Both the position numbers and the translations under genes were made by a program. The notes under the pieces are model-generated. The model was not told the DNA's origin. It ran no database searches and saw nothing but the letters and a program-made list of their open reading frames with translations. Shown piece by piece: positions 4,714-12,670 of a stretch of DNA of 12,670 nt; the stretch's first letter is position 1, and every line of letters starts with the position of its first letter. The DNA lies in IMG/VR virus record IMGVR_UViG_2711768058_000009, positions 1-12,670 of that record. The stretch is one strand, 5' to 3'. This stretch comes from a virus. Taxonomy: Duplodnaviria > Heunggongvirae > Uroviricota > Caudoviricetes.

Positions 4714-4766
4714 AAAAAAGGCGGCAGAGCAGTTACGGAGTAAAACTGGTACCGCCAAACGTCACC
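4714..4766 (-). terminator. Candidate intrinsic terminator for leftward transcription: GGCGGUA/UGCCGCC stem followed by U6
   Basis: Minus-strand RNA would read GGCGGUACC...CUGCCGCC then UUUUUU (plus-strand A6 at 4714-4719). The loop is long, so stability is uncertain. Confidence 0.35.
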
Positions 4767-4905
4767 AGAAAATGGATAACAGAGGGCGTTGCAGCGTGGT
4801 TGTCTCTTAAGCGTATGGTCAACCTGACAACCCGGTGTACTCAACGGGGAAGGAATAACCACGCCATACTTACCGCCGCGCCATTTCGCGGATTGCCACA
4901 ACCGG

Positions 4906-8820: not shown

Positions 8821-9534
8821 ATGGAAACCGTTTTTGACGCACTGAAAGCACTGAAAAGAGCCTCTTCACAGGAGGTGTCGGCCCGCCTTGGAATCAGCCG
8901 CGAAGATGCTGTCAACGAGCTGTGGAAGCTGAAACGCCGTGGTGAAGCAGATAACAAGGGGTCGATGTGGTGGCTGACGATTGAGGCAACTGAAGCGGCC
9001 ACAAAAACCACTGCAGAGATGCTGATTAACGCGATTGAACAGCATGGTCCTCAGTCGGCTGACGAACTGGCGTTAATGTTCGGGATTACCTCCCGCCGGG
9101 CGAATTCATCACTGGCGATGGCAATCAGCAAAGGTCGTCTGATTCGCGTTAATCAGGACGGTAAATATCGTTACTGCATACCGGGCGATAATTTACCGAC
9201 AGAGCCGAAAGCTGCATCGGTAACGGAAACCGATGGTAAAGCCTTTCCTCAGCCAGCAGGTGTTGCGTTACCAGTCCGGGAAGCGGAAACACAGGAAGAA
9301 ATTAAAACTGAAAGTGTGGCGGTCACAGTGCAGTCACAGCCGTCGTTCACCAGAAAGCATCCGGATAGTCTGATTTTACCATCGCTGCATGTGGCTAACC
9401 GCGAACTGCGCCGGGCAAAAGGTCAGGTTCAGAAGTGGGAGCGAGTCTGTGCTGCGCTGCGTGAGCTGAACAAGCACCAGGATATTGTTCGACAGATTAC
9501 TGATTCATCCTGTTGTGTTACATCAGAAAAGTGA
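8821..9534 (+). CDS. Hypothetical prophage protein with two tandem winged-helix-like segments and a C-terminal coiled coil (possibly DUF1627-like), 237 aa
   Basis: GGAGG 8 nt upstream of the ATG at 8821. Internal duplication of an HTH-like segment. Family assignment is tentative. Confidence 0.7.
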
Positions 9535-9549
9535 TTGCAGGGGACGCTG

Positions 9550-10053
9550 ATGGCAAGAGTATTTACACCAGAAGAGCGGGAAAAAATTAAGGGGCAGGTT
9601 GTTGAACTCGTACGCCAGAGCGGTCGCGAGACGTTACGGCAACTGGAAGCTAAAACAGGTGCAACAAGATATCTGATGAGCGTTCTCGCCAGAGAGCTGG
9701 TTGCCAGTGGTGATGTATACAACTCTGGCTACGGGTTATTTCCGTCTGAACAGGCTCGTAAAGACTGGCAAAACGCCCGCAAAAAACTTTCAAGGGCAAA
9801 GGTGAAGAAACCGGCTGTGGTTGATCCGGACCTTATCTGGTCATTACCAGACGGAGAAATACGCCGCTACGACAGGCGCCTGAACATAATCTGTCGCGAG
9901 TGCCGGAATAGTGAAGTTATGCAGCGAGTGCTGGCGTTTTATCAGGGGGTGGGGTCAGGAGGTGGTGCTGTGAGTGAAATTAGCTATCAGGCTTCAATTG
10001 CCGCTGGCATTCGCATCAAAGGAGAGGAGCATGGAAATAAAACCAGAAGATGA
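9550..10053 (+). CDS. Hypothetical protein, 167 aa, with an N-terminal winged-helix-like segment
   Basis: AGGGGA upstream of the ATG at 9550. Tightly packed after the preceding gene. Confidence 0.65.
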   Translation: MARVFTPEEREKIKGQVVELVRQSGRETLRQLEAKTGATRYLMSVLARELVASGDVYNSGYGLFPSEQARKDWQNARKKLSRAKVKKPAVVDPDLIWSLPDGEIRRYDRRLNIICRECRNSEVMQRVLAFYQGVGSGGGAVSEISYQASIAAGIRIKGEEHGNKTRR

Positions 10054-10387
10054 GTTAAGTAATATTGTTTTATTTCCTGTAAAAGAGGATGACCCGCGTA
10101 ATCAGGTTAATTTTATTTATGAGCCATCGGAAAGACCATACTGCCATCACGCCTCTGTCCGGGTTGATGAAAAAGAGCGTCAGGTCCGGTGCAAAATATG
10201 CGGTGCGGTGGTGGAACCATTTGACTGGATGCTCTCTGTGGCGAAAAGAGAAACCAGACTGGCGGATGATGTAAAGCTATTGAGGCAGGAGGAACGGGAA
10301 AGGCGGAAAAATATAGAAAAGCTAATCCAGATTGAGCGTAACGCGAAAGCGCGGATACGCAGGGCGACAAAATCCAGAACTGAATAA
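10031..10387 (+). CDS. Hypothetical zinc-ribbon-like (C-HH…CxxC) protein with a basic coiled-coil tail, 118 aa
   Basis: GGAGAGGAG 3 nt upstream of the ATG at 10031. Overlaps the end of the upstream gene by 23 nt. Contains CHH…CKICG. Confidence 0.6.
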   Translation: MEIKPEDELSNIVLFPVKEDDPRNQVNFIYEPSERPYCHHASVRVDEKERQVRCKICGAVVEPFDWMLSVAKRETRLADDVKLLRQEERERRKNIEKLIQIERNAKARIRRATKSRTE

Positions 10388-10415
10388 TTAAATTTAGCTC
10401 TGTTAAAAATTTAAT
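10387..10415. repeat. AT-rich inverted repeat ATTAAATTT-N11-AAATTTAAT immediately after a stop codon
   Basis: Read directly from the sequence; 9-bp arms. The stem is all A/T, so it is more likely a protein-binding site than a terminator. Confidence 0.45.
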
Positions 10416-10451
10416 CCTTAACCGGAGGGATTTCTGCACTCTCAGAACATC

Positions 10452-10480
10452 AGGAGGCCGCCCGAAAGGGCGGTAGTTAA
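10452..10480 (+). promoter_or_regulatory. Structured translation-initiation region: AGGAGG, then a 6-bp GC stem with a GAAA tetraloop, then 7 nt to the ATG
   Basis: AGGAGG at 10452-10457. Stem CCGCCC/GGGCGG with GAAA loop at 10458-10473. ATG at 10481. The hairpin would shorten the effective distance between the Shine-Dalgarno sequence and the start codon. Confidence 0.45.
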
Positions 10481-10663
10481 ATGCGAAAGTTTAAAATAAT
10501 TATTGAAACGGGAATAGCCGGTGGAGATTTCGAGGATGAATTCGAAGTGGATGATGATGCGACGCCTGATGAAATACATGACGAAGCAAAAGATATTTTC
10601 TTTAACTACTGCAATTACTCATATTACGAAATAAAAGACGAAGAGGAAGAGCAAAATGGCTGA
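10481..10663 (+). CDS. Very acidic small protein, 60 aa (about 20 D/E versus 5 K/R)
   Basis: ORF MRKFKIIIETGIAGGDFEDEFEVDDDATPDE… Stop overlaps the start of the next small ORF (ATGGCTGA). Confidence 0.5.
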   Translation: MRKFKIIIETGIAGGDFEDEFEVDDDATPDEIHDEAKDIFFNYCNYSYYEIKDEEEEQNG

Positions 10664-10832
10664 TTTTGGTTCAACTAAATACAACGTCAGTTTTGAAGCA
10701 TGGCATGAACTGTTAATGGACTATGCAGAGTTACGTGGTGGCAGTGCTGCTGATGCTGAAGCATGGCGTGATGATTATGAAGCAGGAAAAACTCCGGTCG
10801 AAGCATATTGTGATGAGTGGGGCGATGAATGA
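10656..10832 (+). CDS. Acidic small protein, 58 aa
   Basis: Not in the ORF track (under 60 aa). MADFGSTKYNVSFEAWHELLMDYAELRGG… Start overlaps the upstream stop, and its own stop overlaps the ATG at 10829, so three genes are coupled. Confidence 0.45.
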   Translation: MADFGSTKYNVSFEAWHELLMDYAELRGGSAADAEAWRDDYEAGKTPVEAYCDEWGDE

Positions 10833-11344
10833 GCGAGATTAATTATCAGGAAGGGCATGAAACGGCAGGGCAGGCAAAACCAGTTGCATGGCGATATCGC
10901 TACGTGAAAAAAGACGTTACAGACTTTCAGGGGAAGCCGTGGGCTGGTGACTGGAAATATGTACCGACAAAAGAGGATTGTAACGACAGGCCGAACTATG
11001 AAATTCAGGCCTTATTCATCGGCCCGCCAGTCACGGTGACATCAGAAGGACTGGTTAAAGCCGTGCGCTTTTATGAACAGGTAAAGCGTGAGAATCCGCC
11101 AGTCGAAACAGGAGCATGGAAGGATGCTGTTGACTGGGTGCTCAGAGAGGCCTGCTGCGCTGCCATTCTGGGTAAAGCCGACAATCCACCAGCATCCGGC
11201 AATCAGGTTAGCGAATTAACAATGTGGGTTAAACGACTGGTCAGTCAACTGAAAAAAGCTCAGCCGGACTGCAAATTACCGGAGAAGGCGATGGATTACC
11301 TGAAACGAAATGGACTGATAAGCGTGGAGGATGTTTTACGATGA
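10829..11344 (+). CDS. Hypothetical prophage protein, 171 aa
   Basis: Clean ORF, translationally coupled to the upstream small genes. No family recognised with confidence. Confidence 0.7.
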   Translation: MSEINYQEGHETAGQAKPVAWRYRYVKKDVTDFQGKPWAGDWKYVPTKEDCNDRPNYEIQALFIGPPVTVTSEGLVKAVRFYEQVKRENPPVETGAWKDAVDWVLREACCAAILGKADNPPASGNQVSELTMWVKRLVSQLKKAQPDCKLPEKAMDYLKRNGLISVEDVLR

Positions 11345-11390
11345 ATATTTAGACTAAAGAGTTTGTAACGCTATGTAAGTGATTTTTTCT

Positions 11391-11424
11391 GGTTTAGATA
11401 TTTATATGTCCGGCCAAATTGAGG
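11391..11424. repeat. Copy A of an imperfect direct repeat of about 35 bp (GGTTTAG…ATATTTA…TGTCCGGCCAAA)
   Basis: Aligns with 11662-11697 (GGTTTAG…ATATTTA…TGTGCCGGACAAA). Sits upstream of the small membrane ORF. Confidence 0.4.
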
Positions 11425-11464
11425 TGTGTTTAAATGTTATTGCACATTGATTGTAGGGGGAATA

Positions 11465-11644
11465 ATGAAAAACGCATTGCAGTTTTTGTTTGTTGCGTTC
11501 TGGTTGTTCGCATCATGTATGCCCATCATCTTCACAGCAAGGTATATGGAAAAAATTGATGTTTTGATATTAATGTTTGGACATATAAATGCCCTTTTTT
11601 TAGGGGTGTTCATGGCGGTCATGTGCATTGAATACTGGCGGTAA
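11465..11644 (+). CDS. Small hydrophobic membrane peptide, 59 aa, about 2 transmembrane helices
   Basis: GGGGG 4 nt upstream of the ATG at 11465. Very AT-rich. Sequence MKNALQFLFVAFWLFASCMPIIF…LFLGVFMAVMCIEYWR. Flanked by the direct repeats. Confidence 0.45.
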   Translation: MKNALQFLFVAFWLFASCMPIIFTARYMEKIDVLILMFGHINALFLGVFMAVMCIEYWR

Positions 11645-11661
11645 ATACAGCGAACGCCATT

Positions 11662-11697
11662 GGTTTAGTTGGATATTTACTGTGCCGGACAAAAACG
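11662..11697. repeat. Copy B of the direct repeat of about 35 bp, upstream of the hok locus
   Basis: Aligned by eye to copy A at about 70% identity with one 3-4 nt indel. Confidence 0.4.
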
Positions 11698-11698
11698 G

Positions 11699-11727
11699 TT
11701 TGCGGGGAAATCTTAGTTAAGTAGAAT
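11699..11727 (+). promoter_or_regulatory. Candidate promoter for the hok mRNA (weak -35 TTTGCG, 17-nt spacer, -10 TAGAAT)
   Basis: -10 TAGAAT at 11722-11727 is a 5/6 match to consensus. Position is appropriate for a long hok leader. Confidence 0.3.
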
Positions 11728-11789
11728 AACTGCGGGTGCTTGAGGCTATCTGTCTCAGGCATGAACACCAAAAGGCAGATAGAGAAAAG

Positions 11790-11855
11790 CCCCAGTTAAC
11801 ATTACGCGTCCTGCAAGACGCTTAACATTAATCTGAGGCCATATCTATGCGACAC
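11790..11855 (-). ncRNA. Predicted Sok-like antisense RNA; extent approximate
   Basis: Minus-strand promoter TTGACC (plus 11884-11889) -16- GCTAAT (plus 11862-11867) would fire leftward across the leader ORF's RBS and ATG (11835-11849), as in canonical hok/sok loci. Confidence 0.3.
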
Positions 11856-11906
11856 ATAGAGATTAGCCTCTTACGGACCGAAAGGTCAAGGAGAAGCAGG
11901 CTATGA
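11847..11906 (+). CDS. Short mok-like leader ORF, 19 codons, ending in an ATGA overlap with the hok start
   Basis: GAGG 8 nt upstream of the ATG at 11847. Stop TGA at 11904-11906 overlaps the hok ATG at 11903-11905. No long mok frame with an ATG/GTG/TTG start was found overlapping hok. Confidence 0.35.
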   Translation: MRHIEISLLRTERSRRSRL

Positions 11907-12058
11907 AGCAGCAAAAGGCGATGTTAATCGCCCTGATCGTCATCTGTTTAACCGTCATAGTGACGGCACTGGTAACGAGGAAAGACCTCTGCGAGGTACG
12001 AATCCGAACCGGCCAGACGGAGGTCGCTGTCTTCACAGCTTACGAACCTGAGGAGTAA
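11903..12058 (+). CDS. hok: Hok/Gef-family type I toxin, 51 aa (HokD/RelF-like membrane peptide)
   Basis: Translation MKQQKAMLIALIVICLTVIVTALVTRKDLCEVRIRTGQTEVAVFTAYEPEE is a hallmark Hok-family sequence, with an upstream leader ORF and antisense promoter. Confidence 0.9.
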   Translation: MKQQKAMLIALIVICLTVIVTALVTRKDLCEVRIRTGQTEVAVFTAYEPEE

Positions 12059-12066
12059 GAGACCAG

Positions 12067-12088
12067 GCGGGGGAGAAATCTCCCGCCA
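12067..12088 (+). other. GC-rich hairpin at the 3' end of the hok mRNA (GGCGGGGGAG…TCTCCCGCC)
   Basis: Stem of about 9 bp with no following U-tract. Hok mRNAs carry 3' structures involved in fold-back inhibition. Confidence 0.4.
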
Positions 12089-12225
12089 CCTCTGATGTGT
12101 CAGGCATCCTCAACGCACCCGCGCTTAACCCGCTTCGTCGGGTTTTGTTTTTTCCTGGCATTCTGGTTTACAATTCGCACGTCAGCCTGAACAACTGGCA
12201 CCTGCTGCGCCAGCAGAGAAAACCG

Positions 12226-12504
12226 ATGGCGCACGATACCAAGTTACACAATTCTGATAATTCAGCTGTCTTTGCCAGCAGGCACGGGCGGCGTTCCCGC
12301 ACATTCAAATCTGACTGGTTCCAGCATGACCCATGCACAGAAGAACAGGCCGAATGGTTAATTCAGTGCTACCGCAGGCGCGGATACGAGTTTCAGAAAG
12401 ACCTCAGCCTCGACCGACTGCACTGGATAATCTCTGTGAGGCTCCCTTACTCCGAGCGCCCACCGCGTCCATCCCGCACATTCCAGCAACGTATCTGGAG
12501 GTAA
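12226..12504 (+). CDS. Hypothetical protein, 92 aa from the ATG at 12226 (track ORF starts at a GTG at 12097); weak call
   Basis: Its stop TAA at 12502-12504 sits between a GGAGG and the GTG start of the next ORF, suggesting coupling. Composition is Arg/Pro-rich and the RBS is weak. Confidence 0.3.
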   Translation: MAHDTKLHNSDNSAVFASRHGRRSRTFKSDWFQHDPCTEEQAEWLIQCYRRRGYEFQKDLSLDRLHWIISVRLPYSERPPRPSRTFQQRIWR

Positions 12505-12505
12505 C

Positions 12506-12670
12506 GTGCGGGTATTACTTCGACCTGTTCTTGTGCCAGAACTCGGGCTGGTGATCGTTAAGCCGGGCCATGAATCCATGCCGGTATTCCAAAATACCCG
12601 GGTACTGGTGGAGCCGGAACCGAAAAGCATGCGTAATCTGCCGTCCGGGGTCGTTCCTGCCGTTCGCCAG
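12506..12670 (+). CDS. 5' part of a hypothetical protein that continues beyond the window (MRVLLRPVLVPELGLVIVKPGHESMPVFQ…)
   Basis: GGAGG 4 nt upstream of the GTG at 12506. Frame is open for 55 codons to the window edge. The frame is also open upstream, so the start is uncertain. Confidence 0.4.
   Translation, partial: MRVLLRPVLVPELGLVIVKPGHESMPVFQNTRVLVEPEPKSMRNLPSGVVPAVRQ

Follow-up and report, generated by a model that had tools for sequence, protein, structure and literature searches.

Positions 10452-10832 of the window (the whole 12,670-nucleotide stretch of DNA analysed here) hold two very short open reading frames, ORF60 and ORF58, behind a Shine-Dalgarno sequence (SD), a GC hairpin and a start codon. 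The locus raises the question of whether frames of this size are genes, whether the hairpin takes part in their translation, and what proteins of such acidity would act upon. The initial annotation had viewed them as a translationally coupled pair of DNA mimics or anti-defence factors of the Ocr and ArdA kind, expressed from an SD that the hairpin brings within range of the start codon. The best explanation is that the early-right arm of a Rac-like lambdoid prophage harbours a small, mobile cassette of accessory genes here; the fuller account, in which this cassette is read from a split SD and encodes decoy proteins, we hold at even balance.

A small cassette in a Rac-like prophage

The window is a Rac-like lambdoid prophage of Escherichia coli. 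Megablast with positions 9500-12670 matched 5,031 of 5,426 complete E. coli genomes, and in 819 genomes the matches covered 80% or more of the query; in the best match, the prophage lies between yecN/DUF72 and yecD. Its genes for integrase, excisionase, an 814-aa RecE-like exonuclease, YdaT, a DUF1376 O-like protein and P are followed by DUF1627, DUF977, a hypothetical protein, a "DUF7167 family protein", two further hypotheticals and hokD. The prophage arm runs int-xis-recE ... O/P-like - DUF1627 - DUF977 - Zn-ribbon - ORF60 - ORF58 - ORF171 - sok/hokD. The Qin region of E. coli K-12 was inspected as a possible carrier and the genes were absent from it. The features of the cassette are the following.

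9974-10387: Zn-ribbon ORF, phrog_1621, adjoining the leader on its 5′ side
10388-10451, + strand: AT-rich intergenic leader, 3′ of the Zn-ribbon ORF (from the sequence; mosaic junctions nearby)
10452-10457, + strand: Shine-Dalgarno sequence AGGAGG, 23 nt 5′ of the ORF60 start
10457-10474, + strand: predicted RNA hairpin with a GAAA tetraloop at 10464-10467 (folding at -15.5 kcal/mol; relatives)
10481-10663, + strand: ORF60, 60 aa, DUF7167 (PF23768) / phrog_1997 (Pfam, PHROG, dN/dS, structure model)
10656-10832, + strand: ORF58, 58 aa, match to C-terminal part of phrog_519 (PHROG, dN/dS, structure model)
10829-11344, + strand: ORF171, phrog_660 (PHROG; ATGA coupling to ORF58)

The ORF at 9974-10387 gave a weak match to a TFIIB-type zinc ribbon (E = 2e-4, under the cut-off); an AGGAGG at 9957-9962 precedes its GTG at 9974, and the RefSeq start is annotated later. 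Directly 3′ of the cassette, positions 11734-12058 are occupied by the sok antisense RNA (Rfam RF01794, 106.7 bits) and the hokD toxin ORF (11903-12058), and a match to the DicF small RNA (70.5 bits, 4719-4770, - strand) lies in the early-left region of the prophage. Since scans of the + strand for sigma-70-like promoters (9900-12000) and for terminators both came back empty, the cassette is probably transcribed by read-through from the early-right operon, as a delayed-early unit.

ORF60 and ORF58 are almost certainly real genes, judging from their patterns of substitution and their relatives. In comparisons with the diverged E. coli-type loci L113 and L114, identity at the first, second and third codon positions was ~0.85, 0.88 and 0.63 for ORF60 and ~0.96, 0.88 and 0.56 for ORF58. 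The corresponding dN/dS ratios were ~0.15 for ORF60 and ~0.05 for ORF58 (0.05-0.2 for both ORFs, with dS at ~1 or saturated), and both ORFs are thus under strong purifying selection. The initial annotation had named a lack of conservation in related prophages as grounds against its reading; the two ORFs proved to be conserved. That they might be chance reading frames or decaying pseudogenes is suggested by their very short length and by truncated relatives such as the Shigella locus L005, which retains remnants of 36 and 41 aa. This explanation is, however, effectively refuted by the strength of the selection, by the matches to a curated Pfam family and to PHROG families, by homologues as far away as Enterococcus phages and conjugative plasmids, and by confident fold predictions for both proteins. 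The composition bears out the acidity that was first noted: ORF60 has 20 D/E against 5 K/R residues (net charge -15, 33% acidic, pI 4.05) and ORF58 has 15 D/E against 4 K/R (net charge -11, 26% D/E).

The stop/start overlaps said to chain the two small ORFs to a 171-aa ORF are present as described. The stop codon of ORF60 and the start codon of ORF58 overlap by 8 nt (ATGGCTGA), and those of ORF58 and ORF171 by 4 nt (ATGA). Of the 83 E. coli-type loci with a readable ORF60, 79 retain both overlaps and the order ORF60-ORF58, and the pair persists down to ~77% identity in ORF60, with a TGA-ATG abutment sometimes replacing the overlap. Codons GAAGAGGAAGAG in the acidic tail of ORF60 form an SD-like purine run for ORF58. 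From this layout, the chain reads as ordinary translational coupling, in which ribosomes ending ORF60 would restart on ORF58 through the 8-nt overlap and those ending ORF58 would restart on ORF171 through the 4-nt overlap. A weak AU-rich hairpin at 10652-10668 (CAAAAU-GGCUG-AUUUUG) encloses the start of ORF58 and the stop of ORF60; it fits coupling, in that a terminating ribosome would be expected to open it.

The third gene varies among the E. coli-type loci, being the 171-aa ORF, a frameshifted form (85 or 40 aa) or an Ea22-like gene (211 or 239 aa). Within ORF171, the A6 run at 10907-10912 is itself variable, with A6 in 41 distinct contexts, A8 in 17, A7 in 6, A4 in 1 and A2 in 1, and the longer runs lead to the truncated 85-aa and 40-aa products. 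This run could be a site of slippage, phase variation or programmed frameshifting.

The hairpin between SD and start codon

The arrangement that had been described in front of ORF60 was confirmed by direct reading of the sequence: AGGAGG at 10452-10457 is separated by 23 nt from the ATG at 10481, and between them lies a GC hairpin whose folding energy, taken alone, is -15.5 kcal/mol. Its stem of 7 bp (6 G-C and 1 G-U) pairs C10458-C10463 with G10468-G10473 and G10457 with U10474 around a GAAA loop, and leaves, when folded, a spacer of 6 nt (AGUUAA, 10475-10480) between the base of the stem and the AUG. The surrounding 61-nt leader region folds with a z-score of -3.6 relative to shuffled sequences. 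This is the sole perfect 6-bp all-GC hairpin of the window, while chance alone would give ~1.8 hairpins of 5 or more GC pairs in 12.7 kb, and AGGAGG occurs 5 times against 4 expected. Because neither an AGGAGG nor a GC hairpin is rare by itself, the significance of the leader comes from their combination, position and conservation. No ATG, GTG or TTG stands 5-12 nt 3′ of the AGGAGG, and the only purines near the ORF60 start, GGUAG, lie partly within the stem. The leader thus holds a strong SD at a linear distance at which it would not function, with no nearer SD or start, and a stable intervening hairpin that would cut the spacing into the ~5-11 nt range.

A Rfam search with the hairpin, at the gathering threshold and with E up to 10, matched no family. 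That the hairpin is an intrinsic terminator was ruled out because a U-tract is absent on both strands. The sequence GCCC-GAAA-GGGC resembles lambda boxB; a boxB/nut-like reading was dropped, as the site lies far 3′ of the replication genes, between an SD and a start codon, and moves with ORF60. A second, imperfect stem is present in the leader at 10424-10445 (GGAGGG-N9-CUCUC); it reads GGAGGG-N9-CCCUC in most relatives, and its pairing is kept in L113 despite changes in the loop.

We collected 107 distinct genomic contexts of the leader, which reduced to 31 distinct leader sequences, 25 of which, including the L114 type, were aligned. All 25 distinct variants fold a hairpin at the same place, with energies of -5.4 to -15.9 kcal/mol, and folding leaves 6-7 nt before the AUG in every one of them. 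A purine-rich SD abuts the stem in 24 of the 25, with AGGAGA, AGGGGG, GGGAGG, TGGAGG and AGGAAG as variants among relatives. The loop is mostly of the GNRA type (GAAA or GGAA), being GGCA, GUCA or UAAA in some variants. At the stem base, pairs 17-34 and 18-33 (numbering of alignment A6) remain intact in every variant. In L113 and L114, all 12 stem nucleotides are identical to those of the window, whereas SD, loop and spacer have all changed; third-codon-position identity is just 0.62-0.64 in these lineages, synonymous sites being near saturation, and the chance of 12 identical stem nucleotides is ~0.002 per lineage at an identity of 0.6 per site.

In variant loci, the mosaic junctions lie directly in front of the SD, as in AACGATTAATGT|CAGGAGG, which argues that the unit of SD, hairpin and AUG belongs to the gene cassette. 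In L114-116, a different upstream gene (DUF551) is followed by ...AAGTCTGGAGG-CCGCCC-GGAA-GGGCGG-TAATGA-ATG, such that the hairpin is kept in an unrelated upstream context with a GGAA loop and a 6-nt spacer. Not all relatives are intact. About 11% of the distinct contexts have one or two mismatched stem pairs, and three contexts (L007 type) have lost the AGGAGG and the 5′ half of the stem to a recombination joint. One G-C to A-U compensatory double change was found (L136), both of its intermediates, A.C (L092) and G.U (L155), being present as well. With this single double change, covariation was not significant, paired cells amounting to 93.1% observed versus 93.2% in shuffled alignments.

In L090 (2470-2503), an A.C mismatch interrupts the hairpin, the loop is GUCA, and the spacer, now UAAGGAA, yields an SD-like AAGGA 2-3 nt from the AUG, possibly as compensation for a weakened bridge. 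Three DUF7167 database entries of 87 aa (P0002, P0003 and P0006) correspond to ORF60 with 27 extra N-terminal residues. Because an in-frame UAA stop is lost in leaders of the form ...UAGUGAAAUG, these appear to be gene calls extended upstream through the hairpin, and are probably annotation artefacts.

The leader is best read as a putative lineage-specific split ribosome-binding site of the type found in T4 genes 38 and 25, a known though seldom documented device, and hairpin-assisted initiation of ORF60 is, on our analysis of the leaders, the somewhat favoured outcome. The 30S subunit would bind the AGGAGG, and an always-folded GC hairpin would shorten the gap of 23 nt to ~6-7 nt, allowing the AUG at 10481 to reach the P site. 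In T4, a hairpin cuts the spacing between SD and AUG of gene 38 from 22 nt to 5 nt and that of gene 25 from 27 nt to 11 nt, and translation falls when the intervening hairpin is disrupted (PMC3014915; Nivinskas et al. 1999 and Malys and Nivinskas 2009, reviewed therein). As at those sites, the SD is too distant when measured linearly (22 and 27 nt in T4, 23 nt here), a stable hairpin in between brings the gap into a usable range (to 5 and 11 nt in T4 and, when folded, to a predicted ~6-7 nt here), and the arrangement is kept among close relatives and absent from distant ones. Unlike them, it is predicted from the sequence, its sequence and gene are unrelated to theirs, the phage is temperate and lambdoid, and the unit of SD, hairpin and AUG moves with a mobile accessory gene. 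More distant DUF7167 genes have an ordinary SD 8-9 nt upstream or are directly coupled stop to start, and the family as a whole does not, therefore, require the hairpin.

Against this stands a reading that we regard as unlikely although far from negligible, namely that the hairpin is not translational and instead stabilises the mRNA as a 5′ stem-loop remaining from processing, binds a protein as an operator or marks a recombination joint as a conserved palindrome, with the AGGAGG irrelevant or serving weakly. The lack of significant covariation speaks for it, implying that sequence rather than pairing is conserved, and the conservation of the stem could indeed reflect a role at the level of DNA or in protein binding rather than RNA pairing. 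Some natural leader variants, moreover, are mismatched or devoid of an SD, L090 combines a weakened hairpin with a new proximal AAGGA, and AGGAGG is no rarer in the window than chance would have it. A non-translational element would not, however, be expected to sit so that 6-7 nt remain before the AUG in every variant, with a purine-rich SD next to the stem in 24 of 25; neither strand carries a U-tract, no Rfam family was matched, and the junctions lie just 5′ of the SD, so that SD and hairpin move together with ORF60. The proposal of structure-dependent translation is thus supported by the joint mobility of the unit with ORF60, the folding of 25 of 25 variants and the retention of 12 of 12 stem nucleotides, but found no backing in covariation.

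Two protein families with separate neighbourhoods

ORF60 is a full-length member of DUF7167 (PF23768), scoring 55.5 bits against a cut-off of 24.4, with residues 2-53 aligned to profile positions 1-60 of 60; it matched phrog_1997 with E = 2.9e-29. Sixty diverse members of the family share an MRKF-V-IET...FEV-DDAT-EEI--EA-D-F core followed by an acidic tail, with a median net charge of -13, and ORF60 has the invariant FEV-DDAT-EEI-EA part of this core. An AlphaFold2 model built from the family alignment (pLDDT 87.8) predicts a beta-hairpin (residues 2-8 and 17-23), a helix (29-43) and an extended acidic tail. Homologues were found in 35 phage records. Relatives, from temperate and virulent phages alike, occur in E. 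coli lambdoid prophages and Stx-converting phages, in prophages of Klebsiella, Citrobacter and Yersinia, in Klebsiella Guernseyvirinae, in Enterococcus Kochikohdavirus myophages (~140 kb) and in an uncultured Bacilli contig. A search of the full-text literature for 'DUF7167' or 'PF23768' returned no paper. Copies of ORF60 on a contig of a Collinsella sp. metagenome-assembled genome (L004) and in Actinobacillus phage vB_Apl-pPE4 (PP818812.1) are 92-97% identical to the E. coli prophage gene, which probably reflects mis-binning, contamination or a host wrongly assigned.

ORF58 matched phrog_519 with E = 2e-22 over positions 76-137 only of the 143-position profile. An exhaustive HMMER scan gathered 58 cluster representatives, mostly stand-alone proteins of 50-65 aa; given this partial coverage of the profile and these mostly stand-alone relatives, ORF58 corresponds to a C-terminal module of phrog_519. 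The family motif is F--W---L---A---GGS--D---WR-DY-AG-TP-EA--DEW, the median net charge across 32 relatives is -10, and the AlphaFold2 model from the family alignment is a three-helix bundle (pLDDT 87.6). Homologues were present in 198 phage records, among them Ackermannviridae (Vi01-like) and T7-like phages of Klebsiella and Enterobacter, and on 554 PLSDB plasmids, of which 516 are typed as conjugative and most are ~60 kb, the one that we inspected being an IncI2 plasmid. On this plasmid (NC_019115.1, 7601-7904; L244), the ORF58 homologue (86% identity) stands directly after a DUF1187 gene of 44 aa, the two overlapping by ATGGCTGA just as in the window, and is succeeded by SPFH/NfeD and type IV secretion genes. 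It lies ~15 kb from a presumed oriT (mobC-relaxase) and may be on the leading side. Conjugative plasmids of the IncT and MOBH types carry further relatives, embedded there in extended runs of small ORFs that all point the same way.

The chained adjacency of ORF60 and ORF58 is limited to the E. coli lambdoid lineage. Next after the DUF7167 gene comes, in Klebsiella and Citrobacter, a Cys-rich gene of 70 aa, an HNH-like gene or a basic gene of 59 aa and, in Yersinia, a 142-aa gene. In Klebsiella Guernseyvirinae, the DUF7167 gene overlaps the start of a 454-aa exonuclease gene within a recombination/replication module, and in Enterococcus Kochikohdavirus it overlaps the end of the preceding 180-aa gene, annotated as an exonuclease. 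Ackermannviridae, T7-like phages and plasmids carry ORF58 without a DUF7167 neighbour. An obligate two-gene system was rejected, since each family has other neighbours outside the E. coli lambdoid lineage; because the two are never together elsewhere, they are best described as modules stacked in these prophages, and ORF60 and ORF58 are unrelated, independent accessory modules that are each spread by mobile elements. To call them a pair is hence misleading, as they are adjacent in the E. coli lambdoid prophages only.

What the acidic proteins may do

High acidity is a conserved trait of both families, and both are confined to phages and conjugative plasmids. The hypothesis of an anti-defence or DNA-mimic function stays alive for these two reasons, although the homology and fold searches lent it no support, and acidity alone does not identify a target. 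ORF60 and ORF58 matched no anti-restriction family in a Pfam search with E up to 0.1 and nothing in NCBIfam, and PDB profile searches with E up to 10 gave spurious matches only. No similarity in fold to a solved DNA mimic was seen, a BFVD fold search returned only uncharacterised small phage proteins, and PADLOC defence models matched none of ORF60, ORF58, ORF171 and the upstream Zn-ribbon ORF. These searches thus revealed no similarity in sequence or fold to any characterised inhibitor.

Our tentative view, for which we see a limited chance of being right, is that the two proteins work separately, each serving as an electrostatic decoy or inhibitor of a basic nucleic-acid-binding protein of the host or of a rival element; candidate targets would be a nuclease, a restriction or defence component, a nucleoid factor or an RNA polymerase factor. 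Strongly acidic phage inhibitors of 50-60 residues are known in T7 gp5.9, directed at RecBCD, and phi29 p56, directed at UDG, both of which are products of early or accessory phage genes and serve as protein decoys for DNA-binding enzymes. A further precedent is TifA (Orf65 of Enterococcus phage phi47), a small acidic protein that inhibits type IV restriction enzymes and binds defence nucleases directly, yet is unlike B-DNA (PMC11322646). TifA therefore illustrates that a counter-defence role can be signalled by acidity even where DNA is not truly mimicked. It differs from the present proteins in having two domains, an SH3-like N-terminal domain and 21% acidic residues (PMC11322646), and we rejected the idea that it is itself a DUF7167 protein. 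A broader version of the decoy idea, which we consider doubtful, would make the DUF7167 and ORF58 families two new, widespread families of ~58-residue mini-inhibitors, neutralising a nucleic-acid-binding defence or repair enzyme by electrostatic mimicry in phages of Gram-negative and Gram-positive hosts and on conjugative plasmids, with the E. coli lambdoid cassette stacking both inhibitors behind a portable, hairpin-bridged ribosome-binding site.

Whether the proteins are instead true B-DNA mimics of the Ocr and ArdA kind, blocking type I restriction-modification or BREX, was the more specific suggestion of the initial annotation, and we find it improbable. It draws on the very acidic composition (33% D/E in ORF60 and 26% in ORF58), conserved across each family, on the description of Ocr as a B-DNA mimic with 29% acidic residues (PMC11322646), on the occurrence of both families in phages and plasmids only, and on the position of the genes in hypervariable accessory regions beside Ea22, DUF551 and HNH genes. 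Like Ocr (T7 gp0.3) and ArdA, the two proteins are encoded by mobile elements and are very acidic, here by composition. They are, however, half the size or less, and neither Pfam, NCBIfam and PDB profiles nor fold comparisons place them with Ocr or ArdA. In architecture, both Ocr and ArdA form elongated dimers; the folds predicted here are a beta-hairpin plus helix for ORF60 and a three-helix bundle for ORF58.

A role within the phage, in which the proteins would serve its own DNA metabolism by acting on a nuclease or replication protein as small acidic subunits, chaperones or regulators, strikes us as quite doubtful too. The overlaps of DUF7167 with the 454-aa exonuclease gene in Klebsiella Guernseyvirinae and with the 180-aa annotated exonuclease in Enterococcus point in this direction, as do the position of ORF60 after the replication genes in the window and that of ORF58 between DNA polymerase and a 5′-3′ exonuclease in phiKDA1. 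The neighbouring exonucleases are, however, unlike in size and lie on opposite sides of DUF7167; the E. coli, Citrobacter and Yersinia copies are without a nuclease neighbour, ORF58 of IncI2 plasmids sits between a regulator and SPFH/NfeD genes, and no partner gene is conserved. We therefore retain a conserved link between DUF7167 and exonucleases only as part of this rival reading, as it is seen in two distant phage groups, with different nucleases, and is absent elsewhere.

The DUF family, the PHROG and the split SD were known already, and what is described here would add further instances of them; the result is a well-documented pair of proteins and not the discovery of a mechanism. If the hairpin-bridged SD works, the split ribosome-binding site would extend beyond the T-even phages, to our knowledge with its first example in a lambdoid prophage, and would represent a translation module, compact and portable, that travels together with an accessory gene. 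Both proteins are abundant. Hundreds of E. coli genomes encode them, as do Stx-converting phages, Ackermannviridae under consideration for therapy and IncI2 plasmids, which include carriers of mcr-1. Assigning a target to the two proteins would annotate thousands of genes, and, if they are counter-defence factors, would bear on the host range of phages and the spread of plasmids.
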